Shown here: one piece after another, positions 19,855 through 55,702 of the stretch
Layout of the letters: each line of letters begins with the position of its first letter
Numbering within the stretch: position 1 is the stretch's first letter
DNA from: a virus
Taxonomy: Duplodnaviria; Heunggongvirae; Uroviricota; Caudoviricetes
Virus record (IMG/VR): IMGVR_UViG_3300033150_000619
Direction: 5' to 3' (one strand)
Length of the DNA stretch: 64,000 bases
Notes under the pieces: generated by a model
What the model was told of the DNA's origin: nothing
The model's database searches: none
The model's input: the letters and a program-made list of their open reading frames with translations, nothing else
Position numbers and translations under genes: made by a program

Positions 19855-19882
19855 TACAAAGAAAACCGGTGTACTGAGATAT

Positions 19883-24769: not shown

Positions 24770-25779
24770 AGATTATTGATGGCACCTACAAACAGTACGG
24801 TGTTGCTTAGTCTATCTCGGATGAAGAATACAAATGGGTGGTCTACCCTGACTTCAACCGGCGGTGGAGGAACGTACACACACGCCAGCCGAGTCATTAC
24901 TACACTAGTAGCTGCAGCAGCTTCAGTACCTTCTTCATCTACCTCTATGAAGGTCTTGTGTACAACACCACTTATCTTAAGGCGTTCCTCAGTACTGATT
25001 CCCGTGAAGTCAGCATAGTCACTAAAAGCCAGGGGCATCCCCATATCCCCCAGTACCTTATTGAGATTATACTCAACCTCTAGACGGAATTTGGGTAGGC
25101 GAAGTATAACAGGTACGCTTCGCCCTCCAAAGGCATTAGGTGGCTTAAGTAGAGTTCCCTGGGAAACACGACCTGATCGAGACTTAGGTAGCATGATAAC
25201 CATAGAGAGTCTACTAGAATTGTAGGGCAACTCTACTATCTGCAAATCCTCGGTTTCAGCATAAGACAAATCCTTCTGTAGATGCATTATATCAACCTTA
25301 TTGGTTGTCTCAGTACCATAGAAACTATCCTTGACAGTCAAGGTCTTAGAGAACTGGTGAAGCCATTTACCCTTAAAGTAGACAGCATTAGTTATGACCA
25401 TCAGTTCATCTTCTTCTAATCTCTTTATCAGATCCTTAATCTTCCCCTTTGTTTGGATGGAGACCCAGTTGTTGATAATATCTTCAGGACAAGGTAGTCC
25501 TGATATATCCATCGTTGTAGACCTGAATGTAGTCTTAACATACTCAGCCCAATTGGGGTTGATTGGGCACCTGGTCCACACAGCATTAGCTACATTGAGA
25601 GTATCTACTTCAATATGGGGCGGATTATCTATCCCCAGTACTGAAGACATCTCGTCCAGTGTCCGCCCTCTAGCACCGTGGCGTACCATACACAGTGCCA
25701 TCTCTATACTATATGGAGATACTAAGAAATTATCTCCAGTCTCAGAGAAGATGCTGTATAACCTATCTGTAAATGTCAT
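24766..25779 (-). CDS. serpin (serine protease inhibitor)
   Basis: 337 aa; N-terminal NFLVSPYSIEMALCMV...GARGRTLDEM, hinge/RCL EVDEEGTEAAAATSVVMTRLA (predicted P1 Leu, P2 Arg), C-terminal DHPFVFFIRD...VLFVG signature. Confidence 0.8.
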   Translation of the reverse strand: MTFTDRLYSIFSETGDNFLVSPYSIEMALCMVRHGARGRTLDEMSSVLGIDNPPHIEVDTLNVANAVWTRCPINPNWAEYVKTTFRSTTMDISGLPCPEDIINNWVSIQTKGKIKDLIKRLEEDELMVITNAVYFKGKWLHQFSKTLTVKDSFYGTETTNKVDIMHLQKDLSYAETEDLQIVELPYNSSRLSMVIMLPKSRSGRVSQGTLLKPPNAFGGRSVPVILRLPKFRLEVEYNLNKVLGDMGMPLAFSDYADFTGISTEERLKISGVVHKTFIEVDEEGTEAAAATSVVMTRLACVYVPPPPVEVRVDHPFVFFIRDRLSNTVLFVGAINNL

Positions 25780-29364: not shown

Positions 29365-29440
29365 TGGAGCCGGAGGGAGGACTCTAACCCCCGATCATTA
29401 GCTTACAAGGCTAACGCTTTGGACACTAAGCTACTCCGGC
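29365..29440 (-). tRNA. tRNA-Thr(UGU), CCA encoded
   Basis: Minus-strand 76-nt fold: 7-bp acceptor GCCGGAG/CTCCGGC, D-stem GCTT/AAGC, anticodon stem TTAGC/GCTAA with loop CTTGTAA (anticodon TGT), T-arm GGGGG-TTAGAGT-CCTCC, discriminator T + CCA. Confidence 0.8.
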
Positions 29441-42396: not shown

Positions 42397-42876
42397 TTAT
42401 TCTTCAATCTCCACCCGTATTGTGAACCTGGGTATCTTATCTGGTGTAATCTTTCTCGTGCTCTTTCTCTTTTCAGTCACCTGAGTGACTGTATGCTTTC
42501 TGTAGTACTCCTTAAGCTGTCTATTCCTCTCTACCAACATAGCAGATATATCTTGATTCAATAGCTTAAGACGAGCCTTTATTTCTTCCATATCAGCCCT
42601 GCGGTCAGCTATCGCCGCATTGTACTTTATTATCATATCCCTAGCCCTTCTACTACTAAAGACCGGACTAACTAGGGGACAATATGAAGGTAGCTTCTTG
42701 TCCTTGATATACTCTTTAAGATTGAAACCCTCATCGAGACACACCATGTTCTTACAGAGTGAACAGTTCCAATCCATCTTTTTAGGTCTGGGTTTAGGCT
42801 TGGAACCACTCACCCTTGGTCTCGGTGCTGGGGGCACTGGGACTTTAACAGCTACTATCTTTTCTTTACTACTCAT
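42397..42876 (-). CDS. basic protein, possible nucleic-acid binding
   Basis: 159 aa; Pro/Lys/Arg-rich N-terminus (PVPPAPRPRVSGSKPKPRPKK), CSLC motif, coiled coil. Confidence 0.4.
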   Translation of the reverse strand: MSSKEKIVAVKVPVPPAPRPRVSGSKPKPRPKKMDWNCSLCKNMVCLDEGFNLKEYIKDKKLPSYCPLVSPVFSSRRARDMIIKYNAAIADRRADMEEIKARLKLLNQDISAMLVERNRQLKEYYRKHTVTQVTEKRKSTRKITPDKIPRFTIRVEIEE

Positions 42877-43271
42877 GTAAGCACCTCTTTCAGTCTGTCA
42901 AGCAGGTTAATCACCTGCTTAGATAGTAGCTTATTGTCTAGGTGCTTACCTTTTACCAATTCCCATAGGAAATAAGATGTCTCTACCTTAACTCTAGGTG
43001 TATTAATTCTTTCACTTATAATCAGGGGGCTACCGTCAAATTGCCAGAACGTGCGTGTCTTGGTCTTGACTGGTTTAATCTTAATAGCTGTATAATCTTT
43101 ACCGTAGTGTAGGTTTAGGTCGTACCTACCTACCCTAACAATATCTCCCCGTAATAACCTACCTATCTTTCCTCTAGTAGACTTTATCGGGGTATATTTA
43201 GGTACAACTACATTAACAACCTTTAGGAGATTACCCTGCTCCTGCTCTATTAGCTCTTGTTCTCCTTCCAC
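42873..43271 (-). CDS. hypothetical protein
   Basis: 132 aa; its upstream region carries AGCTCTCG iterons. Confidence 0.4.
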   Translation of the reverse strand: MEGEQELIEQEQGNLLKVVNVVVPKYTPIKSTRGKIGRLLRGDIVRVGRYDLNLHYGKDYTAIKIKPVKTKTRTFWQFDGSPLIISERINTPRVKVETSYFLWELVKGKHLDNKLLSKQVINLLDRLKEVLT

Positions 43272-43284
43272 TGCCCAGCACCTT

Positions 43285-43380
43285 ACTTATTAGCTCTCGT
43301 TAATCGTGCTAAACCAGCTCTCGGAAATATATTAGCTCTCGTCGGTAATTGCCGATTAACTCCAGCTCTAGCTGATAAAA
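43285..43380. repeat. iteron-like array: four AGCTCT(C/A)G motifs spaced at about 18-30 nt
   Basis: tagctctcgt at 43291, cagctctcgg at 43316, tagctctcgt at 43334, cagctctagc at 43364; lies in the promoter region of 42873..43271. Confidence 0.8.
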
Positions 43381-43394
43381 TCGTTATGATAGAA

Positions 43395-43447
43395 TATAAA
43401 AAAGGGAATGGGTATCTCCACACTCGCCGGTTCCCCTATCCGAGTGT
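43395..43447 (-). terminator. hairpin plus oligo-T downstream of 43436..43696
   Basis: ACACTCG (43420-43426) pairs with CGAGTGT (43441-43447) and overlaps the stop; on the minus strand a T6 run (plus 43397-43402) lies 16 nt beyond. Confidence 0.35.
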
Positions 43448-43696
43448 AAAGATAACCTTTTCTTTGCCTTCGGACATGGCTTCACGGAATTTGTCTATCA
43501 CTTCGGGGAACCAGAATTCCGCTAACTCTTTAGCCACTGCAGTTCTTTCGTAGTTGGGGAAGGTGTTATTGAGGGCTATCTTATGTGAATCCTCCTCGAA
43601 GGTCACATAGATTTTGGCGGGAAGGTCACCGGTTCGTACCTGTGTGGGTATGCGAAGGCTAACATTCGTTTCCTTTTCGTTGGGTTTTGCCGACAT
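43436..43696 (-). CDS. hypothetical protein
   Basis: 86 aa; preceded by TTTATAAAT 32 nt upstream of the ATG. Confidence 0.4.
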   Translation of the reverse strand: MSAKPNEKETNVSLRIPTQVRTGDLPAKIYVTFEEDSHKIALNNTFPNYERTAVAKELAEFWFPEVIDKFREAMSEGKEKVIFTLG

Positions 43697-43728
43697 AACG
43701 CATCAGCGTTCTAATAGCGGTTCAATGG

Positions 43729-43737
43729 ATTTATAAA
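43729..43737 (-). promoter_or_regulatory. TATA-like box TTTATAAAT
   Basis: Minus-strand TTTATAAAT ends 32 nt upstream of ATG 43696. Confidence 0.4.
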
Positions 43738-43985
43738 CCTATCGCCGTCCATCGCCTTAACGCTACTACCACCATTCTTCTACGGTTAATCTGATTATTC
43801 TATCTTTAACATAATAATATACCCTATACATACATACCCTACACCCTACTTATGATAGCTATCGGTCAATCGGTGATTAATCTGTCGTCGTTGGTCAACC
43901 TTTCATAAATCAATCAGCTAAGTCGTAAACAGTTGACACAACTTTACAATTGATTGAGGCGGTTTCCTTTACTGATTTACTGATT

Positions 43986-44011
43986 GAAACGGTTTTACAC
44001 AAGACCGTTTC
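43986..44011. repeat. palindromic hairpin cassette copy A (GAAACGG-N12-CCGTTTC)
   Basis: GAAACGGTTTTACACAAGACCGTTTC; 7-8 bp arms; loop TTACACAAG in the ACACAA orientation. Confidence 0.9.
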
Positions 44012-44033
44012 TATAAGGAAATAAAAGGGGTAT

Positions 44034-44369
44034 TTAGGATATTCTCCTTATCCATTGTTGGGGATGTATTGGTTTGTTTATTCTACTCATGTCTATGATA
44101 CACGCTTTACAGTCTGATACAGATATGGTTACGCCCCTGTTGGTACAATACAGCTCGGTTGAATCACCAATTAACCATATCTCTATGTACGGGCATTGGA
44201 ACCGACCGCGTGTAAGACAACCGTTCATCTTCTCTAATTCCTTTATGCGGTTCTGTATATATTCTATCTCTCTGGTTCTGTCCCTATCTGTAAGTGTCTG
44301 TTGGTATTCTAATTCCATGTATAAACCATGTAGACTTAGACTGTCTATCATATCCTTAAACTCTAACAT
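44034..44369 (-). CDS. hypothetical Cys-containing protein (island)
   Basis: 111 aa; T-rich codon usage distinct from the rest of the window. Confidence 0.4.
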   Translation of the reverse strand: MLEFKDMIDSLSLHGLYMELEYQQTLTDRDRTREIEYIQNRIKELEKMNGCLTRGRFQCPYIEIWLIGDSTELYCTNRGVTISVSDCKACIIDMSRINKPIHPQQWIRRIS

Positions 44370-44881
44370 TATATCGCCTCTATTATGCTGTGTGTAGGTG
44401 TTAGCTCTTGTAGTGCCGAAGGTAGTGATTCATCTACCATCTTAGGCGGGTAAGATATAGGATATGCTAAGTGCATCCCTGTCCTCGTTAATTCATAATA
44501 CGTTAGTTTATCCCATCTTTTCTTTTTAGACTCACGGTTCCTAATCCTTAATACACTTCTTATTTCTATTATCCCTAACTCTAACAGTCTGAGGATAACT
44601 TTAGTAGCTGTAAACTCTGTTATGTCTCTTAGCTTATAGTGCTTACGCAGTCTCATCTCTAGTTCCTTTCGTTGGAATGGTTCACCGTAGATTAACCTAA
44701 GTAGCTTTCTATCTATGTTGATAGGCTGTTCTATATTCATTAACTCTCGCTGTATCCGTAAAGCATAGCCTACGCTTAGTTTACCGTGTTCTCTCATATG
44801 TTCTAGTTTTTGTTGTAGCTGTGGGGATATGCTACCTTTGGATACAGTCTTAGGGAGTTTCGGCATAGTGTTGACTGACAT
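44369..44881 (-). CDS. putative winged-helix DNA-binding protein (island)
   Basis: 170 aa; two wHTH-like segments (LSVGYALRIQRELMNIEQP; KVILRLLELGIIEIR...YYELTRTG); leaderless ATG 24 nt after a TTAAATA box. Confidence 0.45.
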   Translation of the reverse strand: MSVNTMPKLPKTVSKGSISPQLQQKLEHMREHGKLSVGYALRIQRELMNIEQPINIDRKLLRLIYGEPFQRKELEMRLRKHYKLRDITEFTATKVILRLLELGIIEIRSVLRIRNRESKKKRWDKLTYYELTRTGMHLAYPISYPPKMVDESLPSALQELTPTHSIIEAI

Positions 44882-44904
44882 AGTGGATAAACGACATCGG
44901 ATAG

Positions 44905-44916
44905 CTATTTAACACT
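44905..44916 (-). promoter_or_regulatory. TATA-like box GTGTTAAATAG, 24 nt upstream of leaderless ATG 44881
   Basis: Minus-strand aaagtgTTAAATAgctatccgatgtcgtttatccactATG; no Shine-Dalgarno; lies directly downstream of hairpin copy B. Confidence 0.5.
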
Positions 44917-44926
44917 TTGCATTAAT

Positions 44927-44952
44927 GAAACGGCTTTACACAAGACCGTATT
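44927..44952. repeat. palindromic hairpin cassette copy B
   Basis: GAAACGGCTTTACACAAGACCGTATT (3-prime arm slightly degenerate). Confidence 0.85.
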
Positions 44953-44961
44953 ATGTTGTCA

Positions 44962-45255
44962 TTAACATACTCTCTTACCATGTATAGGGTGGTATTCCCC
45001 TATGTTGATTATATGAGGGGGTAGAGTCCTTAATCCGTTTACAAATCCTATACGTTCCATCTCTCGATAAAGGTTCTGTATAGGCTTAGTAACTACAACA
45101 TTAAACGGCTTCGTGAGTGGGGCATTATCCTCATACAGATATGTGCCTCTGCTTAGACTCCTTAGATGAGTTAAGCTCTCGACTTTGATAAATCTCTGAG
45201 TGAATAAGGTTTGAGTGTATATTGGCGTCATCGTAAACTCTATTGTTGACGACAT
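44962..45255 (-). CDS. hypothetical protein (island)
   Basis: 97 aa; leaderless ATG 24 nt after a TTAAATAC box. Confidence 0.4.
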   Translation of the reverse strand: MSSTIEFTMTPIYTQTLFTQRFIKVESLTHLRSLSRGTYLYEDNAPLTKPFNVVVTKPIQNLYREMERIGFVNGLRTLPPHIINIGEYHPIHGKRVC

Positions 45256-45276
45256 TGGGTAAGAAGAAAGAGAATA

Positions 45277-45289
45277 GAGTATTTAACAC
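45277..45289 (-). promoter_or_regulatory. TATA-like box GTGTTAAATACTC, 24 nt upstream of ATG 45255
   Basis: Minus-strand ggaagtgTTAAATActctattctctttcttcttacccaATG; downstream of hairpin copy C. Confidence 0.5.
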
Positions 45290-45298
45290 TTCCTACAT

Positions 45299-45324
45299 GA
45301 AACGGCTTTGTGTAAGACCGTTTC
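45299..45324. repeat. palindromic hairpin cassette copy C
   Basis: GAAACGGCTTTGTGTAAGACCGTTTC; perfect 7-bp arms; loop is in the opposite orientation to copies A and B. Confidence 0.9.
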
Positions 45325-45435
45325 ATAAAGGAATAGATAGGTTAAGGGTTATGTCAGCGATTATATTGCCCTCAACCTATCCGAACATATAGCTTATGGA
45401 GTATATTTAAGATTATCGAAATAAAGGGGGAAGTG

Positions 45436-45708
45436 TTATCTATTGTATTTGTGTCTATACTTATTTCTCTTATGGACATAAGACCCCTTAGTATTTCCGT
45501 GGATAGTATAAGCTGTTTCAAACAACTTATTATCTATCTGTGTTTGGGTTTCAGCTAAACATGAGTTATACTCTGTCACTCTTACTTTACCCCTACACCG
45601 TGGACATCTTACAACAGTGCCCAATCTATCAACGGCGTGAGTAAAGATATATCCACATACCTTACCCCTCTTATTTCTGTTTAAACAGCGTATAAGGCGG
45701 TTAGGCAT
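45436..45708 (-). CDS. zinc-ribbon protein (island)
   Basis: 90 aa; CLNRNKRGKVCGY ... CPRCRGK; basic C-terminus. Confidence 0.4.
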   Translation of the reverse strand: MPNRLIRCLNRNKRGKVCGYIFTHAVDRLGTVVRCPRCRGKVRVTEYNSCLAETQTQIDNKLFETAYTIHGNTKGSYVHKRNKYRHKYNR

Positions 45709-46034
45709 TAGGGCTGTATCTCCGTTAAGTTATATCGTGGTTCTCTGTCGTTGAGTGCATCCATGTATCCCTCATAATATCCACTTAAGCGTCCGTTTTG
45801 ATATGATACATGATAAGCGTTCATCCATCCCTTCAATGACTGTTTAGTATTATTTAGTATCTCCGTTGTTAGTTGGTGAGTCTTTAGCAGTTTATTGTAT
45901 TCGTTAGTTAGTGCTTTATTCTCTGTCTCTAATTCTTCTATACATTCCCTTAATGGAGTTATCTGTGTCTGATATAGAAAGGAAAGAAATAGGAGATTAA
46001 AGGCTATGGGTATAGCGTAGTATTTCTTACGCAT
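45708..46034 (-). CDS. membrane-anchored coiled-coil protein (island)
   Basis: 108 aa; N-terminal TM/signal segment (AIPIAFNLLFLSFLY) then coiled coil. Confidence 0.4.
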   Translation of the reverse strand: MRKKYYAIPIAFNLLFLSFLYQTQITPLRECIEELETENKALTNEYNKLLKTHQLTTEILNNTKQSLKGWMNAYHVSYQNGRLSGYYEGYMDALNDREPRYNLTEIQP

Positions 46035-46407
46035 CTAACCACTCACCATAACCGTGACTCTGTAACCATTGAGTATAGGCTTTCACTGTGTCTTTATCGT
46101 GGTCTGTGTTTATCGTAAAACCATTCGACGTAAGATATTGGTGAACATTGATAAAGTCTAAGGCATAGGGTGTTCTCTTAATCATTGGAGCTAAACCCCA
46201 TAAATCGTAGTCGTTATCTTCCTCAACCACATGGATAGATAGGTAGCCGCCAACATAATGTATCATGGCTGTATGTTTGTGTTCATTATTGAACATTAAG
46301 TAGTAACCGCTTAGTGAAACGGATATGGGACGTAGGTAGTGATTAGAGAATAACATTAGCTTCTCTTTAGTGTCTGTTACCTCAGCATAAGTCATCATAT
46401 GACACAA
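46027..46407 (-). CDS. hypothetical protein (island)
   Basis: 126 aa. Confidence 0.4.
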   Translation of the reverse strand: MCHMMTYAEVTDTKEKLMLFSNHYLRPISVSLSGYYLMFNNEHKHTAMIHYVGGYLSIHVVEEDNDYDLWGLAPMIKRTPYALDFINVHQYLTSNGFTINTDHDKDTVKAYTQWLQSHGYGEWLDA

Positions 46408-46739
46408 CTCTGCTTAAGTCTATAATGAACGTCTATTAATGAGATAACAGCGTTTAACATAGCCTCTCTATTATAGTATTGAAGTTGCATACCTTCGTTA
46501 TGAGCGGTTGCCCACCGTGGTTCATGTTCATCGTAGGGGTGCACATATATTGTTAGTGTATGTTCTCTGTGTGGTATCTTAAAGCCTTCAAATCGGATAA
46601 CTGTATCATTGGGTTTTATGTGTATCATGGCTGTGTCCGACAAATCCATAGAAGGGATAAAGTCTATGGTTTCAGTGTAGAAGGGTATTCCCTCACGTAT
46701 TTTATTCTCATACTTTTCGGTTAGTATCATCTCTATCAT
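46395..46739 (-). CDS. hypothetical protein (island)
   Basis: 114 aa. Confidence 0.4.
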   Translation of the reverse strand: MIEMILTEKYENKIREGIPFYTETIDFIPSMDLSDTAMIHIKPNDTVIRFEGFKIPHREHTLTIYVHPYDEHEPRWATAHNEGMQLQYYNREAMLNAVISLIDVHYRLKQSCVI

Positions 46740-46933
46740 CTCTCGTATTTCCTAACTATGTAAGCATGATTCTCTGTTATGTCTCTAAAAGCTACACTGA
46801 ATAAGTGAATAAGAATATCTAACTCTGTATTTAGTTTTAGGTGTTGGAACATATCCCAATTTTGGATTAGGCGGATTAGTCTGTTGCGTAGGGTGTTGGG
46901 GTATTCATCTAACTGAATTACTATCGCTGACAT
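46736..46933 (-). CDS. hypothetical protein (island)
   Basis: 65 aa; leaderless ATG 25 nt after a TTAAATAC box. Confidence 0.35.
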   Translation of the reverse strand: MSAIVIQLDEYPNTLRNRLIRLIQNWDMFQHLKLNTELDILIHLFSVAFRDITENHAYIVRKYER

Positions 46934-46955
46934 AGTAATAATGAAAGAGGGGTAA

Positions 46956-46967
46956 GAGTATTTAACG
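46956..46967 (-). promoter_or_regulatory. TATA-like box CGTTAAATACTC, 25 nt upstream of ATG 46933
   Basis: Minus-strand aacgTTAAATActcttacccctctttcattattactATG. Confidence 0.45.
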
Positions 46968-47149
46968 TTTATGATTCATTGATTTGAGTTGATGATAAAA
47001 GCAGTTGAATATTAGACTAAAGTATCTTAGTCTTTCTGCCTTAGTCTTAGCGTTCTCAAACCTTATGAGCAGTGGATTTCTGTCACTCATGAATAAAAGG
47101 CTACAACATGGATAAAAAGAGATTATGGATTATGACTCTATGACTCTAT

Positions 47150-47175
47150 GAAACGGTGTTGTGTAAGACCGTTTC
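47150..47175. repeat. palindromic hairpin cassette copy D
   Basis: GAAACGGTGTTGTGTAAGACCGTTTC; perfect 7-bp arms; loop orientation matches copy C. Confidence 0.9.
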
Positions 47176-47233
47176 AATTGGGTATTGTTGGTGGCCAGAT
47201 TCATGACTTTGACGCCTCATAAAAAGAAAGGGA

Positions 47234-48133
47234 TTAGTTAATCTGGCCCATATGGGATAGGGTATTGGGTATCGCTACCCTTTCGCTTAATCTGCTTTGT
47301 TCTTTATACCACCGAATTAGTTTAGTATCGTCATATTCCCAATAACAACTTAGTATAGCTTCAAATAGCTGTGTAGCTGTATCAATGTCTAATTCCTTAA
47401 ACTTATCTATGATTGAATAGAAGCATTTACTGATATTACCAAATTGCATCTCAGCTGGTGAGTTGTATGGTATATCCCTACTTTTACCGTATACTATTGG
47501 TGTTATTCCTAATTTCTCTAACCCCTCAATAACTGCATTAACCTTTCTATCCATTCTTAGATATTGTATATTCTCACCGTTATCTATTGCTTTTTGTATG
47601 AGTTGGAGTATTCTAACTGTTGTTTCTGTCGGTTCATGGTATACGTGATAATACCTTTTCTGTGTCTTAAGGTTGACTAACATAAGTATCTTAATTATTG
47701 CTTTATCTTCATACCGTAGATATGTGCGTGCGTGCTTTCTTCTCTTTATTGAACCGTCATTTAATCCATATCCATCCATGGCGTGAGTAACCAAATCGGT
47801 AGATAGATTTGAATTATATGTTTGTTTAGATGTTTCATACCTTACGTTAAAGACTCTTTTAGGGATTATGTTTAAACTCTTTTTGAGTCTAAACAGACGG
47901 GTTTTATTAGTGTTTAATATGTGTGCTGAAACATCTAAGCCTAAACCTAATTCGTTATGTATTGTTAGTCTTTCTTCTATTTCCTTTTCCTTTTCCGCTG
48001 ACATGGCTATACCCCTAACCGTTTCACCATTATATAAATGGCTAAGGTTGTTTTGGGAGGTGTTGGGTGAAAGTGGTTGCCCCACTATATTCACCCTTTC
48101 TGTTTCTTTTTGAGGTTTCATCGTTCTCCTCAA
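47234..48133 (-). CDS. hypothetical protein (island boundary)
   Basis: 299 aa; GAGGAG Shine-Dalgarno 4 nt upstream of the ATG; no recombinase or transposase motif recognised. Confidence 0.45.
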   Translation of the reverse strand: MRRTMKPQKETERVNIVGQPLSPNTSQNNLSHLYNGETVRGIAMSAEKEKEIEERLTIHNELGLGLDVSAHILNTNKTRLFRLKKSLNIIPKRVFNVRYETSKQTYNSNLSTDLVTHAMDGYGLNDGSIKRRKHARTYLRYEDKAIIKILMLVNLKTQKRYYHVYHEPTETTVRILQLIQKAIDNGENIQYLRMDRKVNAVIEGLEKLGITPIVYGKSRDIPYNSPAEMQFGNISKCFYSIIDKFKELDIDTATQLFEAILSCYWEYDDTKLIRWYKEQSRLSERVAIPNTLSHMGQIN

Positions 48134-48304
48134 TAAATAAAATTCAACCTTAAGGGTGACTCTGCATATAGATACGCGTCGTCATATGTCAGTGTCTAAT
48201 CCAAATCCAGATCATAACTGTATCGTAGTTGTTGGTGTAGTATAAATCTAGATCCTAATTGTATAGGATCCCCGTGTCGGTTAACATCCATAAAGTCCCC
48301 TATA

Positions 48305-48320
48305 CAGTAGTAAATGTACT
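48305..48320 (-). terminator. oligo-T tract downstream of nrdD
   Basis: Minus-strand ccatatattttttggagc about 40 nt after the nrdD stop (plus-strand aaaaaa at 48308-48313). Confidence 0.3.
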
Positions 48321-48357
48321 AGCTCCAAAAAATATATGGATAGGGATATGGTACAGG

Positions 48358-51300
48358 CTATGCTACATTGATGTAAGTCCTATCATTAAACTCCTGGAGC
48401 TTGCCCTTGTTGTATTTGTTAGTTGACCTATAATATCCTACGACTCTGGAGAATACCTCAGTTGCACCACCACAACTGCTGCAGTCATAGTGTACACCAC
48501 GTTGGTAGCTACCACATTTGGGGCATATACTAAACGTAGCAGAGAAGTCAAAGTATGGTACCTTGGTGTTCTTAGCTATACTCTCCGTTAGCTTAGCTAG
48601 ACCTGCTGGGTGCGGGTCAGCTTCTCCTACATATATTCTATGGACTGTACCACCGGTAAAGGTAGTGAGATATGGCTCTTCAAAGAGCAGTCTCTCCTCC
48701 ATTCCCATTTCATAGGAAGGTGGAGTTATCATAGAAGTATAGTATGGGGAATCTGTCTCTCCCATCGTATATATATCTGGGTACTTCTTCCTGTCTTTGA
48801 TGGCTAAGTCAGTAGCAGAACCTTCAGCCGGTGTCATCTCAAAGTTCCACAGCAGACCCGTTTCCTGCTGTGTTGTCTTAGTCCAGTTCCTGATGTATTG
48901 AAGGACTCTAATTGCTAAGTCTCCAGCTTCTATAATATTACTTCCTGTATGGTTGATGCACATCTCATTAAGACCGACTATACCAATAGTACGGAAGAAT
49001 CTACTCAGGTCTACTTCGTAGATTCTTGCTATAGGCATAAGTCCACTATTAATAGACTTATTGACTATATCGCCCTTAATCTCTAGTGCTTCCCTAGCCA
49101 TAGAAAGAGTCATGTCTAGGTTATCAAATAACTCACTCTCTTCACGACTGATATACCCCAGACGACCTAAATTCAGTGTTATTACTCCTATTGAACCTGT
49201 GTTGCCTGATAAAGCCCACCTACCTCCTGCAGGTGGTAGCTGACTTAGATCTAAGTTTAATCTACAGCAGTTATGCGTTATTACACCATTAGCTAGTTGA
49301 TACAGATGCGGCTCTGGTAATTCAAGAGTATATACAGTGTCAGCGTGATACTTCTCCTTAATGTCTATGACCGATACCCACTGATAACCACCTTGATCAG
49401 TGTACTTACTGCTATTATCCTTACAGATACGTATTACCTGTGATGTCTTTAGTGTTCTAGTATATTTTATACCAAGGCTTCCTAATACATCACAGATATC
49501 ATCGGCTAACTCTGGATTGTTAATGTGTAGTTCATTGTCTCTATTGTAGCCGTCCCCCTGCCATAGACCATCTATCAGTCCTTGTCTGAAGTCTACAGAC
49601 CCTCTAAAGACAGCAGCTCTTAGTTTCTTCTCGGTGGATAACCTTCCACTCACGAAGCTTCTGACTAATCCTCTAACAGATTTATCATACGTTAATAGGG
49701 AAACAGCAGAGGATCTAGGATCAGGTACCTTAATCGACCTCGCTCCTAACGTGCGTTGCAGGAACTTAGTTATAAAATCTATATGTTCTGCTTCATCAGA
49801 ATGGAAGGTGAACTGTATCGCTTTACCAGTGTCTAGTCCTTCTGCAATGTATAGTCCAATTAGCCTACCTAGATCATAAGTTCCATATTCTGTATCATAT
49901 GGAGTAGATGCCATTGGGAGTCTCACTCCCGGTCGTAAGTCAACGGCTCTAATCACTCCATCATCTGTTAGGAATAGATGTGATTTCGTAACCTTTAGTA
50001 TGTTACCGTTGTCTAGATAAACATACAATAGATTGCTATCGTACTGATAGGCATCTACGTAGCAGGGAACAAACTCACCATTGACTAGTGCTTCTATGTT
50101 GTGTTTAGTGCTCGTTCTATAGAGATTCCTTAAGGTATCTCTAGAAACTCTACCATCAACGCGATAGATGACTTTGGTTTCTCCCTGGAAGCACATTGCT
50201 TGTACGCTGTCTTCATCAATACCAGAACCTACATAGTTCATGTAGTACCAGTTACCGAACTTAGCATCTGTACGCATTATCTCATAGAATAGATCTGAAC
50301 TAAAATCTGTAGACTTGATCAGATTTAGAGTTGGTATAGGGAACGTAAACACAGATCCTATTCCGTCCCCTTCATACAGAACATGATTAAAGGCTTTGAT
50401 TATAGTCTCTGCTTCATCTGCAAAGTCTTCATATGTATTACCATTGTCTAATACAGGTAACTCCCTGAGTTGTTTAGGACACTTAGAGTCAAATATTAAA
50501 TTAGTAAAGGGTGTATTACCAGTGAAGGCTATCTTACCATTTCTAAGAACTATCATGCTATTGTTGTCTGTATTAATACCGTACACTCTTCCATCGTAAG
50601 GAATAGTCTCAACCTCTGCATAAGTTCTATCTGTGAAGTCCCTAACTATAGATATATCATAAACTCCGTTGTCTCTTAATCTATTATTGGTTAAGTACCC
50701 AGCAATAACACATAATTCTTGGAATCTCAATAAGTCGGATTCGGAATTAGTATATAACCTAAATCTGGACTTAGATCCATCTCCCAACCTATATTCAGAT
50801 AAGAACAATCTGGCCTGGTTTCTTGACAACAAAGATGTCCACTTAGGTATGGATTTACTATATCCACTCTTATAGAAAGTAAATCTCTTGACTGGTGCAT
50901 TAGCACACCCGCCGGAATATTCAGACTCTGTCCATTCTATACCATTATCAGACAGAGTGGATCTTATGCACTCTATATTCTCTGGATTGAGTATAGATTG
51001 TCCTATTACTATTCTATCCTCTTTGGTTTTGTTAGGTGTTATATTACCCTCAGAGACTATCCATGCCCACAACCTTATTTCTTCATCCGTAATTGGATAA
51101 TCTTCCCTGTCAATAAGTCCCATAGCAGGAACTAAGACTCTAGATTTCCTATCGAATATGTCTTTAGCCATCTCAAATCTAGGAGTATCATCATAATAGG
51201 GAAATGTAATAACTCTGTGTTCTGGAACGACTAATTGATCAGTTCTCTCATTGTGTATGTGATACATTAATCCATTATAATTGTATCTAACTACCTTGTG

Positions 51301-52947
51301 GATGGGCAATACCTCTATTTCTCTAGTCTCCATATTGAAGGTTAAGGCTAAGTCGGACTCAGATATCTCATCTATTGATTTCCATCCATCTAGAGTTAGA
51401 GTAAGGGTATCTTCAGATACACACTGATAACCTGCTCTAGAAGGATAATTTAGATTGAATATAAGCCTCTGCATCTCCTGCTTAACTTCCTCATAGGATA
51501 GGTTGTCGTGGTAGACAAACGGGGCTAACAACCAGTTGACATTAGATATAGCTTGGGCACCAGCCCATTCCTGCTGTGATGTAGCCATAAAGTTCACTAT
51601 ATGGTCTACAGCTGTATTAAGGTGCTTAGCAGGCTTAGATCTAATTCTTGTAGTTATTAGTCCCATATTCAACAGTTTGAACAGATCAGCACCATAACAA
51701 TTATGTACTTTGAGTCCAACAGTAGAGAATATACCAGATTCTGTTGTTATATCATAGACCATCTTCCCCTTCCAAGGAATCCTCCATAGCTTCTTTACCC
51801 TAGGAGTTCTGTCGTAGTAATCTATATTGCCTGGCTTTCCAACTCTGTACCGAATATCATTCTTACTGGTAATCTTTAATGATTCAGAGAATAGAGTGAT
51901 ACATCTCTCTTCCATGAATATCTTAAGTTTGAATATATTCTCAGTGGTACTAAATCTCATTGCTACCGGAAGACGTATGATATCAAACAGTGTCTTTAGT
52001 TGGCTGACTAATTCATATGATGTAGTGTCTATCCCAATTATAGATGCTCCTTGTTTAGGGGTGATACACCAACCGTCTCCGTCTATTATACCTGCTATGA
52101 TATCAAAGAAGGTCTCTTGTGTGAAGTCAGTATATGGAATAGCTTTATTGTGGGATCCGTTCTCCGGAACAGAGAATAGACGTTTGACTAACAGATTATC
52201 TCCATTAATAACTATATCCTTCCCGTATATCGAGAAATCTATATTATAGTCTACTAATACCCTTAGTATCTTGTTCTTCTCTGGTGAATCGTATTCTATA
52301 CAGTAGTTCTTCCCTCTTTTGAATCCTTTGGCTATGTACATTCCTAACAACCAGGCAATATCAGACGCAATGTGTGTTCTTCCAAAGACAAATCGTCTAG
52401 ATGGAAGAGCTGTAGTTAACTTATCTCCTACATTCAGTTCTGAAGCAGGCACAGTAGTTTCTGCAAGTCCTACAAAGATAGGGTGATCCTCTGTTACAAT
52501 TAGTATCCTTCCATTGTCTGTTTCAATTCCAATTAGATCACAGTGTGAGGGATGTGACTGTGTATCAATTATATTAACCCAGGTAGCATTGTCCTGTAAA
52601 GTCTCTAGATTGCTCTTACCTTGTACGTCTTTAAGAGACGTAAAGAAAGGTCTCTTGATGTTAGCATCTCGAACTAGGATTGATGTAGAGCCTATATACG
52701 AATAGGGAACTATACCATCGCTGAGATTATGTATATGGAAGTACCCATCTAAGTAAGCCTTCCTAATCATATCGGGATACTGGCTTAGTGAGTATCTCTT
52801 AATGTTCTTCTTAGTCATATATGCCTGTAGACCTGAGTATGATATATCTGAGTTAGCGTTCTCCTTAATCTGCCAGTCACTCTTCTGTATGTAACTCTCA
52901 ATATCATTGCTCCACGAATCGTCAGTAGTCCTTAATAGCTCGTCCAT
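48358..52947 (-). CDS. nrdD: anaerobic ribonucleoside-triphosphate reductase (class III RNR) interrupted by three inteins
   Basis: 1529 aa; N-terminal YLDGYFHIHNLSDG; conserved CCRLNLD just after intein 3; C-terminal Zn ribbon CPKCGSY...CSSCGG and glycyl-radical motif SRVVGYYRS; the extein sums to about 637 aa; GGAG Shine-Dalgarno 8 nt upstream. Confidence 0.85.
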   Translation of the reverse strand: MDELLRTTDDSWSNDIESYIQKSDWQIKENANSDISYSGLQAYMTKKNIKRYSLSQYPDMIRKAYLDGYFHIHNLSDGIVPYSYIGSTSILVRDANIKRPFFTSLKDVQGKSNLETLQDNATWVNIIDTQSHPSHCDLIGIETDNGRILIVTEDHPIFVGLAETTVPASELNVGDKLTTALPSRRFVFGRTHIASDIAWLLGMYIAKGFKRGKNYCIEYDSPEKNKILRVLVDYNIDFSIYGKDIVINGDNLLVKRLFSVPENGSHNKAIPYTDFTQETFFDIIAGIIDGDGWCITPKQGASIIGIDTTSYELVSQLKTLFDIIRLPVAMRFSTTENIFKLKIFMEERCITLFSESLKITSKNDIRYRVGKPGNIDYYDRTPRVKKLWRIPWKGKMVYDITTESGIFSTVGLKVHNCYGADLFKLLNMGLITTRIRSKPAKHLNTAVDHIVNFMATSQQEWAGAQAISNVNWLLAPFVYHDNLSYEEVKQEMQRLIFNLNYPSRAGYQCVSEDTLTLTLDGWKSIDEISESDLALTFNMETREIEVLPIHKVVRYNYNGLMYHIHNERTDQLVVPEHRVITFPYYDDTPRFEMAKDIFDRKSRVLVPAMGLIDREDYPITDEEIRLWAWIVSEGNITPNKTKEDRIVIGQSILNPENIECIRSTLSDNGIEWTESEYSGGCANAPVKRFTFYKSGYSKSIPKWTSLLSRNQARLFLSEYRLGDGSKSRFRLYTNSESDLLRFQELCVIAGYLTNNRLRDNGVYDISIVRDFTDRTYAEVETIPYDGRVYGINTDNNSMIVLRNGKIAFTGNTPFTNLIFDSKCPKQLRELPVLDNGNTYEDFADEAETIIKAFNHVLYEGDGIGSVFTFPIPTLNLIKSTDFSSDLFYEIMRTDAKFGNWYYMNYVGSGIDEDSVQAMCFQGETKVIYRVDGRVSRDTLRNLYRTSTKHNIEALVNGEFVPCYVDAYQYDSNLLYVYLDNGNILKVTKSHLFLTDDGVIRAVDLRPGVRLPMASTPYDTEYGTYDLGRLIGLYIAEGLDTGKAIQFTFHSDEAEHIDFITKFLQRTLGARSIKVPDPRSSAVSLLTYDKSVRGLVRSFVSGRLSTEKKLRAAVFRGSVDFRQGLIDGLWQGDGYNRDNELHINNPELADDICDVLGSLGIKYTRTLKTSQVIRICKDNSSKYTDQGGYQWVSVIDIKEKYHADTVYTLELPEPHLYQLANGVITHNCCRLNLDLSQLPPAGGRWALSGNTGSIGVITLNLGRLGYISREESELFDNLDMTLSMAREALEIKGDIVNKSINSGLMPIARIYEVDLSRFFRTIGIVGLNEMCINHTGSNIIEAGDLAIRVLQYIRNWTKTTQQETGLLWNFEMTPAEGSATDLAIKDRKKYPDIYTMGETDSPYYTSMITPPSYEMGMEERLLFEEPYLTTFTGGTVHRIYVGEADPHPAGLAKLTESIAKNTKVPYFDFSATFSICPKCGSYQRGVHYDCSSCGGATEVFSRVVGYYRSTNKYNKGKLQEFNDRTYINVA
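49243..49256. repeat. dispersed palindrome ACTTAGATCTAAGT copy
   Basis: Exact 14-mer inside the nrdD extein right after CCRL (codes NLDLSQ). Confidence 0.95.
49270..50193 (-). mobile_element. intein 3 in nrdD
   Basis: aa 919-1226; starts CFQGETKVIYRVDG, ends VYTLELPEPHLYQLANGVITHN followed by CCRL; internal GLYIAEG / LIDGLWQGDG LAGLIDADG-like motifs. Confidence 0.7.
50515..51423 (-). mobile_element. intein 2 in nrdD
   Basis: aa 509-811; starts CVSEDTLTLTLDGW, ends RVYGINTDNNSMIVLRNGKIAFTGN followed by Thr. Confidence 0.65.
51634..51645. repeat. dispersed palindrome variant CTTAGATCTAAT (11/12)
   Basis: Inside the nrdD extein (codes RIRSK). Confidence 0.8.
51700..52542 (-). mobile_element. 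intein 1 in nrdD with LAGLIDADG homing-endonuclease domain
   Basis: aa 136-416; starts with Cys after SHPSH, ends MVYDITTESGIFSTVGLKVHN followed by Cys; two LAGLIDADG-like motifs (LLGMYIAKGF, IAGIIDGDGW). Confidence 0.75.
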
Positions 52948-53145: not shown

Positions 53146-55242
53146 ATGCCCTATAAGTCTATCTCTGAGTTACCTGCCAGTGTCAGAAATACACTACCAG
53201 TGTCTGCATTAAGGATATGGATGAATGCATATAATTATGCCATAGCCAATCCAGATAAAGTCGAAGGTGAGCCAGCCCAGTATGCTTGGGGAGCTGTTAA
53301 GAAAGTCTATGAGAAAAGGGACGGTAAGTGGGTTAAGAAGAACAACTTAGATCTAAGTGTGCAGGAGATAGAAGACCTGCAGCTTACTACTGCTGACATT
53401 GTAGACATACTTCCTAAGAGGTTCTGGGAAGTTCCTGTTAGATATGGGTACAGAGTTGCATCTGACATGGGTAGATTGCTATGGAATGGGTTGAAGAGTA
53501 CGTTTACTTCTAGTGTCAGCCTTGATGACTACGTAGGACAGCCTATCCACCTAATAGAAGATGTAGTATCCTACGGTACCTTCATCCTTAAGAAATCAGT
53601 AAGTAAGAGGAAGGATGAGGACGAAGAAGATGAGTTTGACTTCTATGTATATGAAGTAGACTGGCTTAGGAAGTTCCCTGGTCCTTTGCCTGTTAGGGTT
53701 AGGAAGAAAGAGTATGGTCTACTCAATAGGAAAGACTATTCCTTTAAGATGTTAAGTGGACTTAGTAATAGAGACCTACTCTATATACACTCTTACTGCC
53801 ATAGTGGTCACCATCTCGGGATAAAGGAGTTTCATGACCTTGTGGCTAAGGAAATGGAGAGAAGAGGTATAATACATCCAGTCTATGCACCAATGGATAA
53901 GGACACACCTGAAATACCTGCTCCTGACATTGGGGATACACCTCAATTAGATATAGAGGATAAAGTTACATTAGAGCAGTTCCTGTCTATGCTACCAGAT
54001 CAGTTTTCTCTAGACGCTCCTCCACCTAAGATGTGGGTTACAGGGGATATAGTTAACAAAGGGATAACTACAATATCTGATGGCATAGACATAGTGGTAG
54101 GGCAGGATGAAGTAGATCCCCGCATAATCAGTAAGATAGCCAGCTTAATAGGAGATGACAGAGTTAAGAAGAGTATCAGGGTCATATTCTCTACAGAGGG
54201 TCCTCCCTTTGGATATAGTATTCCCCTTTACAGGGATGCATTCCAGAAACTAAGCTATAGAAGCACATTTAATCCTACAGACTACCTTAGATATACGCGT
54301 CCATCAGACAATACATATACTAATCTACAGACTTTATGGGATGAGTGGGGCAGCGTTAGAATAGATGACGGTTTATTCGTAGAGAAGAGATATGATGGTA
54401 TACCTGTATCTGTACATCATTTCCCTGGCAGTCGTACAATAATCCGCAAGAACAAGGTACCACTTAAGTTAGATTCGATAGAGTTAGAACTTAGTAAAAT
54501 TGATAGACAGTTTGTAGGTATGGGTACAATAGTCCAGTATGACTGCAACAACATCAAAGTGAATAAGATAGAGGAGCTCTGTAAGCCTATCCCCGCTGGT
54601 GCTGAAAAGTTAAGGAAGAAGCCATTTGGATACACACACGCATCTGACTGTACAGTCCTCCACTTACACGAAATAGTATTCTTAGATAATACACCAATAC
54701 ATAACGGATCATATAAAGAAAGGGTAGAGTTAATGGACTCCCTCATCCCGGATGATTTAATCCATGTGAGGAAAGTACCCTATTCATTGGTTAAGTCCAA
54801 AGCAGAATTAGAGAGTGCAGTATCTCAGTTATTGAGTATCGGATCAGACGGTGTCAACATTAAGGAAGCTACCTCAACATTCAACTTCAGTGGTAAGAGT
54901 AAACAGATGGTAGACTTAGACAAAGACAGTGATGTTATTGTAATAAAGCTAAAGGACTGTACTCTGTTTCATGATGAGAATATATGTCCTCTCTACACCT
55001 TAACACATCATTCATTAACTAAAGTAGCTATTGAAGAATTACAGTACCCAGTGAAGTGTCAATTAGCATCATTAGTAAAGTGTCCCTTGGTGAAGGACTA
55101 CTACTATCAGTTATCTAAGCCTGTAGAAATTAAGAACTGGTTTATACCCTTGACAGAACCAGATCCTTCAGATACTCATACTCCTCTAAATCAATCAGAC
55201 CAGCCTTATAGGACTTATACAGAAACCGGAGGGCTTTCCTAG
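53146..55242 (+). CDS. ChaB-domain protein fused to a large C-terminal domain with degenerate ligase-like motifs
   Basis: 698 aa; N-terminal 70 aa (MPYKSISELPASVRNTLPVSALRIWMNAYNYA...AWGAVKKVYEKRDGKWVKK) closely match the ChaB N-terminus as recalled from memory; C-terminal FVEKRYDGIP, VLHLHEIVF, DGVNIKE and IVIKLKD resemble ligase motifs I, III, IV, V with the catalytic positions altered; AGGAGAG Shine-Dalgarno 6 nt upstream. Confidence 0.6.
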   Translation: MPYKSISELPASVRNTLPVSALRIWMNAYNYAIANPDKVEGEPAQYAWGAVKKVYEKRDGKWVKKNNLDLSVQEIEDLQLTTADIVDILPKRFWEVPVRYGYRVASDMGRLLWNGLKSTFTSSVSLDDYVGQPIHLIEDVVSYGTFILKKSVSKRKDEDEEDEFDFYVYEVDWLRKFPGPLPVRVRKKEYGLLNRKDYSFKMLSGLSNRDLLYIHSYCHSGHHLGIKEFHDLVAKEMERRGIIHPVYAPMDKDTPEIPAPDIGDTPQLDIEDKVTLEQFLSMLPDQFSLDAPPPKMWVTGDIVNKGITTISDGIDIVVGQDEVDPRIISKIASLIGDDRVKKSIRVIFSTEGPPFGYSIPLYRDAFQKLSYRSTFNPTDYLRYTRPSDNTYTNLQTLWDEWGSVRIDDGLFVEKRYDGIPVSVHHFPGSRTIIRKNKVPLKLDSIELELSKIDRQFVGMGTIVQYDCNNIKVNKIEELCKPIPAGAEKLRKKPFGYTHASDCTVLHLHEIVFLDNTPIHNGSYKERVELMDSLIPDDLIHVRKVPYSLVKSKAELESAVSQLLSIGSDGVNIKEATSTFNFSGKSKQMVDLDKDSDVIVIKLKDCTLFHDENICPLYTLTHHSLTKVAIEELQYPVKCQLASLVKCPLVKDYYYQLSKPVEIKNWFIPLTEPDPSDTHTPLNQSDQPYRTYTETGGLS
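53345..53358. repeat. dispersed palindrome ACTTAGATCTAAGT copy
   Basis: Exact 14-mer inside the plus-strand ChaB-fusion gene (codes NNLDLSV). Confidence 0.95.
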
Positions 55243-55347
55243 TGTCCCACTTCAGTATTATATCTGGATCTATCTTAGTAGGTCTATACATCGTCTCTCC
55301 AAATATAAATACACCTACAGGCTATATACACATTAGGGAGGAATATC

Positions 55348-55668
55348 ATGGCTAGACTGGAATTAGTAAGGAATGACTACGGTTACCCATTAACATTTAC
55401 TATAAAGGATTCCCAGGAGAACTTAGTAGATTTAACCAATGCTACGGTTACGCTCAAGGTAAAGAAGTCTGGTCAAACCTGTTTGACCATAGACGCCGAA
55501 TGCACAGTAGACCCAGATCCAACAACAGGAGTTTGTACATATATTGTTCAAGACGAAGACTTTGATACTGTTGGTAGATATGTAGGAGAGTTAGAGATAG
55601 AGTGGACTGGTGGGAAGGTTATGACAGCTACAGACCTTAACATCGATATAGTCCCAGATCTCTCTTAG
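55348..55668 (+). CDS. hypothetical protein, possible Ig-like/beta-sandwich
   Basis: 106 aa, Thr/Val-rich with alternating beta-strand pattern; second gene of the only plus-strand block. Confidence 0.4.
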   Translation: MARLELVRNDYGYPLTFTIKDSQENLVDLTNATVTLKVKKSGQTCLTIDAECTVDPDPTTGVCTYIVQDEDFDTVGRYVGELEIEWTGGKVMTATDLNIDIVPDLS

Positions 55669-55702
55669 CCTATATGTGATCCATATTTGGTCTAATGGTG
55701 AT

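Follow-up and report, generated by a model that had tools for sequence, protein, structure and literature searches.

What a conserved hairpin is doing between the small genes of an uncultivated virus, four times over, and whether it belongs to the promoters near it, was the question raised by a 64,000-nucleotide stretch of DNA from a tailed virus (IMG/VR record IMGVR_UViG_3300033150_000619; the whole stretch is called the window below). An earlier note, made from the sequence alone, had described an island of small genes at 43272-47233, each standing behind a cassette of a GAAACGG-N10-12-CCGTTTC hairpin and a TATA box. In our analysis the two parts of this cassette came apart. The hairpin proved to be the core of a palindrome of approximately 44 bp, accompanied at all of its loci by one gene, which codes for a 295-amino-acid (aa) protein with a retroviral-integrase fold (the DDE protein). 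We tentatively read the palindrome as a double-stranded DNA site for such an integrase-like protein, a module boundary or a recombination site, and give this reading slightly less than an even chance. The boxes, judged from their sequence and spacing, are very probably ordinary archaeal promoters giving leaderless first genes.

The search for GAAACGG-N12-CCGTTTC located exact copies at 43986, 45299 and 47150, where 100 dinucleotide shuffles gave an expectation of 0, and a degenerate fourth copy with the right arm CCGTATT was found at 44927. All four hairpins listed in the earlier note were recovered in this way, within 43.98-47.18 kb. A covariance model built from 19 copies detected just these four in the window, and a 136-kb relative in IMG/VR carried exact copies at the same three positions only. 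The core had been delimited correctly, but the element extends beyond it to about 44 bp, with arms of 20-22 nt around a 4-nt centre (palindromes A to D, Table 1). The centre tetranucleotide, read on the coding (minus) strand, is ACAC for the pair C and D and GTGT for the pair A and B, in agreement with the previous observation that the loop occurs in both orientations (plus-strand reading: GTGT for C and D, ACAC for A and B). The stem of C is lengthened by the outer arms TTCCT/AGGAA and gave an RNA fold of -21.1 kcal/mol (z = -6.6); the arms of A are 22 nt long and 82% complementary, with 4 nt between them. Three of the four window copies folded with z from -3.2 to -6.6, the remaining one being the degenerate B (upstream arm AATACGG on the coding strand), whose fold equalled that of shuffled sequences (z = -0.06). 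All four are located 11-112 nt downstream of a stop codon, and the stems are followed by CATAGAG, CATGTAG, CATTAAT and CAATCAG. The description of three hairpin-box cassettes held for B and C, at 14 and 12 nt from the box, but not for the third, as the box at 46959-46965 lies about 175 nt downstream of D; A has no box.

Relatives were collected by pattern scans and protein searches. The contigs L001-L003, L005, L014 and L033 were 96-98% identical to the window, L108 showed 80% protein identity, and one relative of about 70% nucleotide identity, represented by L004, L010 and L105, covered the whole island; the distant relatives L109-L118 were reached through the 295-aa protein. Searches of IMG/VR returned one relative contig only, 97% identical. 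The search of related genomes that the earlier note had proposed showed that the hairpin is conserved, and the final alignment comprised 19 palindrome copies from 10 contigs representing at least nine distinct lineages.

The coding-strand consensus of the 19 copies was the approximately 44-bp sequence TGACTTAGT-GAAACGG-TCTT-(ACAC or GTGT)-AAAG-CCGTTTC-ATTNAGTCA, in which ACGG, TT, AA and CCGT were invariant. The halves of the palindrome carry the boxes TGAC and ACGG, 12 bp apart, and the ends of the 44-bp unit tend toward 5'-TG...CA-3'. When column i was paired with column 45-i, 77.9% of the cells were complementary, against 71.6 +/- 1.4% in column shuffles (none of 500 reached the observed value) and about 40% in slid controls. 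Cells changed on both sides numbered 30, with 16.7 +/- 3 expected. Arm variants included GAA/TTC, GTA/TAC, ATA/TAT, TTT/AAA and TTC/GA, and the outer arms as TGAC/GTCA, TGTC/GACA and TTCC/GGAA. The imperfection of the palindrome is itself conserved, as columns 18/27 were mismatched in 15 of the 19 copies, and a small asymmetry of the arms had the same orientation in 18 of them. Cells compatible with G-U pairing and C-A cells numbered 25 and 20, indicating that the strands are balanced and that neither is favoured as RNA. The core was maintained across DDE proteins that are just about 25-45% identical.

The four positions in the window are orthologous to those in the relative of about 70% identity. 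Palindrome D was perfectly kept within a diverged, indel-rich stretch of L001 and L108, and was also kept in L004/L105, while the L105 ortholog of B was degenerate in the same arm. The centre was ACAC in 10 copies, GTGT in 8 and CGGT in 1, with no intermediates, and two of the four orthologous positions have different centres in the window and in L105, the ortholog of A in L105 and that of C in L010/L105 having a flipped centre. We found no way in which simple site-specific inversion would produce this pattern; gene conversion of palindromic copies in inverted register and template switching within the hairpin are possibilities.

The gene accompanying the palindrome most likely starts at ATG 48121 (MKPQKETE), which is preceded by the Shine-Dalgarno (SD) sequence GAGGAG. 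Its product matched no Pfam or PHROG family. The AlphaFold model contained a core at residues 100-215 with a predicted local distance difference test (pLDDT) score of 74-88 and the element order beta-beta-beta-alpha-beta-alpha-beta, and Foldseek matched the model to the integrase cores of human immunodeficiency virus 1, bovine immunodeficiency virus and avian sarcoma virus and to IstA of the insertion sequence (IS) IS21 (E 2e-6, probability 1.0). The residues D116, D191 and E224 (spacing 75 and 33) were invariant in 22 sequences, down to about 23% identity. The family comprised 38 representatives among 1.8 billion proteins.

The DDE gene occurs once per contig, adjoins the gene of the anaerobic ribonucleotide reductase NrdD in the window, L110 and L117, and is the sole gene common to all palindrome loci. 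Wherever the downstream sequence suffices, a palindrome follows it within about 0-60 nt or beyond one or two small open reading frames (ORFs), mostly encoding zinc ribbons. This first palindrome was seen in the window/L108, L105, L109, L110/L111, L112, L114, L115, L116, L117 and L118, with intervening zinc-ribbon ORFs in L105, L110 and L112; in L113, no palindrome was found within the 211 nt of sequence downstream of the gene. The left palindrome arm contains the stop codon in L105 and L112. The earlier note had looked for the binder of the palindrome in the winged helix-turn-helix (wHTH) and zinc-ribbon proteins of the island. This proposal has lost ground, as the wHTH protein has two relatives only and the palindrome-bearing lineages share the DDE gene alone.

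The junctions at which the palindrome occurs differ in the arrangement of the flanking genes. It lies between tandem genes in the window and L105, between convergent genes in L109, L112 (copy a) and L117 (copy a), and in divergent promoter regions in L112 (copy b) and L117 (copy b). Over the window and its relatives, the distance to the next TATA box ranged from 12 to more than 200 nt. With such spacing, and with copies at convergent and divergent junctions, the hairpin and the box do not form one cassette as had been supposed. The junction positions together with the strand symmetry argue for action as double-stranded DNA over a terminator or an RNA.

The palindrome coincides exactly with the edges of gene blocks whose content varies, or whose direction is reversed, from one relative to another. 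The interval from C to B contains one gene in the window and four in L105, and between the DDE gene and D there is no gene in the window, whereas L105 has two zinc-ribbon ORFs there; the gene after C in L105/L010 is unrelated to that of the window. In L112 and L117, a run of five to seven opposite-strand genes has a palindrome copy at either end, and the centres of the two copies are opposite (ACAC in copy a, GTGT in copy b). On the larger scale, the block 53146-55692, with its BppU_N-like and ligase-like genes, has opposite orientations with respect to the DDE gene in the window and in L004/L105, and in L004/L105 the NrdD gene (48358-52947 in the window) is replaced by an unrelated 277-aa gene on the other strand.

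From these observations we infer that a dimeric protein would bind the palindrome as a bipartite site with two-fold symmetry, and that this protein is most likely the DDE protein with its probable N-terminal helix-turn-helix (HTH). The palindrome would mark the borders of small-gene modules, and modules would be exchanged, lost, gained or inverted there. At B and C, which lie 12-14 nt before the TATA box and its upstream transcription factor B recognition element (BRE), the bound protein could also modulate the promoter. A bolder form of this reading, for which we see only a small chance, is that the 44-bp palindromes are the recombination sites of an unrecognised DDE-integrase system in tailed archaeal viruses, which would capture, delete and invert small-gene modules, as a functional counterpart of integrons or invertible segments that uses another class of enzyme; the asymmetric 4-bp centre would then set the polarity of the site. 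Here, a strongly conserved, covarying element is tied to an unannotated integrase-fold family that lacks a Pfam or PHROG model, in viruses that are almost entirely uncharacterised. If the DDE protein does act on the palindrome, archaeal viruses would have a new way of shuffling their genomes by modules, and the compact pair of protein and site would be testable in vitro.

Several observations weigh against a site for the DDE protein. The relatives of 96-98% identity showed no rearrangement at the copies and had the same centres, so that recombination must be rare if it occurs at all. Neither a palindrome copy nor a half-site was found upstream of the DDE gene, and no target-site duplications or direct repeats flank the 44-bp unit. 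The DDE gene is stably placed beside NrdD in three lineages, unlike a classical DDE transposon, and we know of no DDE enzyme that performs conservative inversion between sites. The model of the DDE protein had a mean pLDDT of 53 and is reliable in the core only. A hairpin of RNA or a cruciform would explain the compensatory arm changes equally well, two of the four window copies are located exactly where an upstream activator or repressor site would be, and the host was assigned from protein affinities.

The position of B and C leads to a second explanation, in which a dimeric transcription factor encoded by the virus (for example the 170-aa wHTH protein, regulating its own gene) binds the palindrome as an operator or upstream activating site, with the island as the regulon. 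We consider this unlikely. From the end of B it is 14 nt to the TATA box and from that of C 12 nt, and both stand just ahead of the BRE; the spacing of B to the box and the BRE were conserved in L105, and B stands before the wHTH gene in both genomes. The 170-aa protein resembles PadR/MarR-type winged helices, and the symmetry of the site suits a dimer. The wHTH assignment of the earlier note was itself borne out at low confidence: the model was a winged helix with a mean pLDDT of 55, all fold matches were wHTH proteins with weak E values of 0.01-0.2, and a weak match to Pfam DUF2250 (E 0.087) was obtained. Nevertheless, this protein had only two relatives among 5.8 billion proteins, while the palindrome occurs in at least nine lineages without a detectable homolog nearby. 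The copies at convergent junctions (L109, L112a and L117a) have no promoter to control, the distance to the TATA box is far from constant, and copy A has no promoter nearby.

A bidirectional terminator, or a 3'-end RNA hairpin insulating the transcription units, is in our estimate quite unlikely, although much of the anatomy would suit it: the stop codon shortly before each window copy, the copies at convergent junctions, the good folding of three of the four window copies, the covarying arms, and a symmetry that permits action in both directions. Archaeal transcription ends at oligo-T tracts, and tracts resembling these were present. One of them directly follows the stop codon of the DDE gene (Table 1), similar ones were found at 45418-45430 and 44017-44030, the order of T-tract and then palindrome recurred in L105, L109, L115 and L117, and T-rich tracts of the CCCCTTTTATT type stand immediately before many palindrome copies. 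The tracts thus precede the palindrome and none follows it. The terminator scan detected nothing on the coding (minus) strand at the hairpins, with no T run (U-tract in the RNA) after the stem, and in L116 the outer arms are TTT...AAA, the opposite of what a terminator requires. Copies also occur in divergent promoter regions (L112b and L117b), and B folds no better than shuffles yet was kept in two lineages. The 12-nt loop is the most conserved part and has a reversible centre, which is hard to square with a functional RNA loop.

The palindromes might also be selfish or neutral repeats, such as repetitive extragenic palindromes, elements like miniature inverted-repeat transposable elements (MITEs) or relics of abutted transposon ends, maintained by gene conversion and hairpin-templated repair. 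The TG...CA ends and the adjoining DDE gene would fit, and centre flips and symmetrisation of the arms are generally expected from template switching in quasi-palindromes. We find this origin very unlikely, as all four positions of the window have orthologs in the relative of about 70% identity, the core persists where the DDE proteins share only about 25-45% identity, no target-site duplications were found, each locus has one to four copies with none elsewhere in the 64 kb, and the conserved mismatch of columns 18/27 resists symmetrisation.

Among described systems, the nearest architectural analogue is the promoter-early stem-loop (PeSL) cassette of the hyperplastic regions of T4-type phages (Arbiol et al. 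2010, PMC2839356; PMC4122927). In both cases a short conserved stem-loop and promoter motifs are repeated among small ORFan genes in a compositionally plastic region, and the gene content between the motifs varies among relatives (here the intervals from C to B and from the DDE gene to D, and the gene after C in L010). In a PeSL, a sigma-70 promoter and a functional terminator are joined with constant spacing, whereas the palindrome stands near archaeal promoters at a variable distance and has no terminator features. The palindrome is also tied to the DDE gene, and PeSLs have not been described as linked to a recombinase.

The nearest mechanistic analogues are of two kinds. The abutted-end junctions and palindromic targets of IS30, IS3 and IS21 likewise combine an HTH-DDE enzyme with a site in which a few central bp separate two inverted arms, each of about 20 bp, and with TG...CA ends, and IstA of IS21 was among the fold matches of the DDE protein. 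In contrast to these elements, the palindrome has no second end upstream and no target duplications, its central 4 bp are conserved where a junction spacer would be arbitrary, and the DDE gene is single-copy, syntenic beside NrdD and a member of a family of 38 representatives. The hix/gix sites of Hin/Gin and the attC sites of integrons resemble the palindrome in the 26-bp core, the imperfect inverted arms and the asymmetric centre in both orientations, as well as in the blocks of opposite-strand genes between opposite-centre copies (L112 and L117) and the small cassettes separated by repeats. Unlike in the invertase and integron systems, the adjoining enzyme is of the DDE type and no rearrangement separates close relatives; a scan of the island ORFs and about 40 other window ORFs detected no serine or tyrosine recombinase. 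Each of the nearest analogues of the palindrome therefore fails at least one defining feature.

Several specific identities were considered and rejected. For a classical DDE transposon, the RNase H-fold core and the D, D and E residues were present, and terminal repeats, duplications and a multicopy or variable location were absent. A second transposon end upstream of the DDE gene was not found. A MITE with target duplications was rejected as no flanking direct repeats were detected; a lone ACTCAG pair in L115 is probably due to chance. For an integron attC site, GTTAAAT fits GTTRRRY, yet there is no inverse core and no IntI. Neither intrinsic terminators nor sigma-70 promoters were enriched in the window, and none lay on the coding strand at the hairpins. 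The pattern was further searched in 185,579 species genomes for a repeat mimicking clustered regularly interspaced short palindromic repeats, or a provirus, which yielded 58 unrelated loci, almost all bacterial and with one or two isolated sites each. No array and no ACAC or GTGT centre was present at these loci and no host genome was matched, although the host may be absent from the collection. In a metagenome pattern scan, 36 of 43 loci were unrelated, mostly representing one gut-bacterial site.

The upstream side of the DDE gene has a conserved motif of its own, AAGGTTGAATTTTATT, which was found just upstream of the gene in four lineages (48122-48160 in the window, approximately 2525-2545 in L105, 5575-5600 in L110 and 610-630 in L115). 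It differs from the palindrome and is too near the ATG to be a TATA box for the start of the DDE gene.

The promoters are best understood from the setting of the virus. The ATP-dependent DNA ligase of the window (13908-15671) matched ligases of Thermococcus, Pyrococcus, Archaeoglobus and Sulfolobus with E of 6e-59 to 1e-32, while the best match to a phage ligase was merely about 1e-7. The 323-aa protein at 17724-18695 matched TIGR03878 (thermo_KaiC_2, E 2e-32), and one RNA ligase matched the Pab1020-type family TIGR01209. Because of these archaeal affinities, the window most likely derives from an uncultivated tailed archaeal virus of an anoxic habitat. Most large ORFs in the window had no Pfam or PHROG family, the large structural proteins had almost no relatives among phages, and none of 50,697 phage records matched the island in a megablast search. 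Every gene in the 1-53 kb region is on the minus strand. Further genes encode tail-like proteins, a serpin and the anaerobic ribonucleotide reductase with inteins (48358-52947).

In such a virus the geometry of the promoters is expected and presents no phage oddity. Archaeal promoters have a TATA box at about -27, a BRE at about -33 and an A/T-rich element at -10, and archaeal leaderless mRNAs use ATG, mainly on the first genes of operons (PMC5316973). In the island, TTAAATA was confirmed at 24, 24 and 25 nt before ATG 44881, 45255 and 46933, as the earlier note had stated, and none of these three genes had GGAG, GAGG, AGGA or GGTG within 4-16 nt before its start, all starts being ATG. GGAG-type motifs precede many other window genes, and the operon-internal genes of the island retain weak GAGG/GGAG sites. 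The box described before gene 43436..43696 is present as TTTATAAA, at 33 nt from the start rather than 32. Purine- or A-rich, BRE-like stretches (GCAAAGTG, GGAAGTG, CATAAACG and, in L105, GAAAAGTG) lie upstream of the boxes, and TTTAT-like runs sit 7-12 nt before the ATG of the island promoters. The TATA box would thus be centred about 28 nt before the ATG, immediately preceded by the BRE, and a T-rich element would occupy the region near -10. Transcripts would begin with the A of the ATG or a nucleotide beside it, so that the first gene of each small operon would be carried on a leaderless mRNA.

The same geometry was found beyond the island. A scan of the coding strand of the window for GTTAAATA or TTAAATA[CGT] gave seven box-like sites, four of them 24-25 nt before the ATG of an ORF lacking an SD sequence, and outside the island TTAAATA stands 25 nt before ATG 19854 and TTATATA 26 nt before ATG 22628. 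The box at 46959-46965 was kept in L001, L108 and L004/L105 amid a diverged, indel-rich spacer, and the L105 ortholog of the promoter at 44906-44912 reads GAAAAGTG-TTATATA, 25 nt from the ATG. Relatives showed this arrangement in L105 at 4143, 6081 and 6784, in L112 at 3570 and in L117 at 7566 and 8966, also before unrelated genes (TTAAATA at 25 nt for L105 6081, TTATAAG at 24 nt in L112, TTTAAATA at 25 nt and TTATAAA at 26 nt in L117). The distance from box to ATG was thus 24-26 nt, and orthologous promoters differed by A/T swaps alone. Together with the archaeal-type proteins, this upholds the archaeal promoter geometry proposed previously. The likeness to the promoters of Thermococcus, Sulfolobus, Haloferax and their viruses covers the A/T heptamer about 28 nt before the start, the BRE, the T-rich element near -10, the SD-less ATG on the first gene and GGAG-type motifs on internal genes. 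No substantial difference was noted here, for window promoters known from sequence and a host deduced from protein affinities. The promoter part is of a known type, textbook once the virus is taken as archaeal, and the model BRE, TTAWATA, 24-26 nt, ATG can be used to annotate this group of uncultivated viruses.

It is highly improbable that the window is instead a bacteriophage, with TTAAATA as the promoter of a phage or modified RNA polymerase or as an extended -10 element and with a pyrimidine-rich, SD-less leader: GTGTTAAATA can be read as TGn plus a weak -10 element and the 24-26 nt between box and ATG are C/T-rich, but sigma-70-like sites numbered 15, fewer than the 20.3 expected from shuffles, the ORFs that were scanned yielded no RNA polymerase, the proteins have archaeal affinities, and the box tolerates swaps among TTAAATA, TTATATA and TTATAAA as TATA boxes do. 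The phage-specific polymerase promoter offered as an alternative in the earlier note is unnecessary, and nothing in the data supports it.

A similar arrangement was observed at 19880-19915 on the minus strand, where an unrelated hairpin with a 9-bp stem, GGTTATCTCC-ATA-GAGGAGATAAC, stands directly before the TTAAATA box of ATG 19854. This is a second case of a hairpin followed by a TATA box, with a sequence different from that of the palindrome.

The history of the island was also reconsidered. The region 44001-48000 was the strongest trinucleotide outlier of the window (z = 3.0), with a G+C content of 0.37 and a GC skew of about 0, compared with about -0.15 elsewhere. The reported shift in composition is therefore real, while its limits had been drawn too narrowly, as the compositional island takes in the DDE gene. 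Nine small genes are organized in approximately four transcription units, and a cassette before each gene, as had been claimed, is not what we found. The small genes of 44034-46933, arranged in three transcription units (Table 1), had no family matches and have orthologs in L010 and L105. Recent acquisition, the conclusion of the earlier note, was not sustained. The same island with four orthologous palindrome positions exists at about 70% identity, close relatives show no rearrangement, and the DDE gene stands beside NrdD in three lineages, and for these reasons the island is an old, stable feature of the virus group. The missing 14-bp palindrome that had been taken as a sign of acquisition is uninformative: with about 10 sites per 64 kb, the chance of finding none in 4.2 kb is about one half.

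Table 1. Features of the island and of the adjoining DDE gene, in the order of the coding (minus) strand
Feature	Position	Strand	Remarks
DDE protein, 295 aa, retroviral-integrase fold	47234..48121	-	probable N-terminal HTH; heads the compositional island
T-rich tract CCCTTTCTTTTTATG	47219..47232	-	directly past the DDE stop; resembles an archaeal oligo-T terminator
Palindrome D	47141..47184		core 47150-47175, GAAACGGTCTTACACAACACCGTTTC on the coding (-) strand; 59 nt past the DDE stop; 50 bits
TATA box TTAAATA	46959..46965	-	A-rich ATCATAAACG before the box; 25 nt to ATG 46933, first gene of operon 46933-45436
Small genes of transcription unit 1	46736-46933, 46395-46739, 46027-46407, 45708-46034, 45436-45708	-	
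90-aa zinc-ribbon protein	45436..45708	-	assigned from the cysteine pattern; ortholog in L010; last operon gene before palindrome C
Palindrome C	45290..45333		core 45299-45324; 112 nt past stop 45436, 12 nt before the TATA box; 58.6 bits
TATA box TTAAATA	45280..45286	-	BRE-like GGAAGTG; 24 nt to ATG 45255
Small gene of transcription unit 2	44962-45255	-	
Palindrome B	44918..44961		core 44927-44952; 11 nt past stop 44962, 14 nt before the TATA box of the wHTH gene; 45 bits
TATA box TTAAATA	44906..44912	-	BRE-like GCAAAGTG; 24 nt to ATG 44881 (wHTH gene)
Small genes of transcription unit 3	44369-44881, 44034-44369	-	
170-aa probable winged-helix protein	44369..44881	-	first gene behind palindrome B
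Palindrome A	43977..44020		core 43986-44011; 23 nt past stop 44034, straight after a T-rich tract; 54.6 bits
TATA box TTTATAAA	43730..43737	-	33 nt to ATG 43696; would give a leader of about 8 nt

Palindrome A is followed by two copies of AATCAGTAA and a repeat-rich spacer of 337 bp (43697-44033). The repeats in this spacer are AATCAGTAA (twice), GTATGTATGTAT and the solo arm-like AACCGCCTCAATCA; indels of tandem repeats distinguish it from its counterpart in the 97% relative, and the counterpart in L105 contains ATCAATCGGTAAAATA twice. The spacer could be an origin or a regulatory region.

The 14-bp palindrome mentioned above, ACTTAGATCTAAGT, occurs at 6538, 13120, 15485, 19389, 28474, 32700, 49243 and 53345, and its 12-mer core at 37129 and 57119, giving a site about every 6 kb in genes and spacers alike. 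It was also found within the DDE gene of L114 (around 1340). Its possible roles include those of a restriction-modification site, a packaging signal and a site for protein binding.

Elsewhere in the window, the serpin gene (24766-25779, minus strand) is full length (Pfam PF00079, E 7e-88). The ribonucleotide reductase (48358-52947, minus strand) has 1529 aa, its NrdD homologs in L110 and L117 having about 580-590 aa, and appears to contain several inteins with LAGLIDADG-like inserts. A search with Rfam 15 gave no match at E up to 1 in 43200-48400, and the matches in the whole window were two tRNA genes only, at 29365-29440 (Thr-TGT) and 30154-30226 (Gln-TTG), both on the minus strand. In the spacer upstream of gene 42873-43271, the motif TATTAGCTCT(C/T)GT is repeated three times at a spacing of 40-42 nt (43248-43342), and related GAGAGCTGG motifs are present in other spacers, at approximately 42270, 36990 and 40730.

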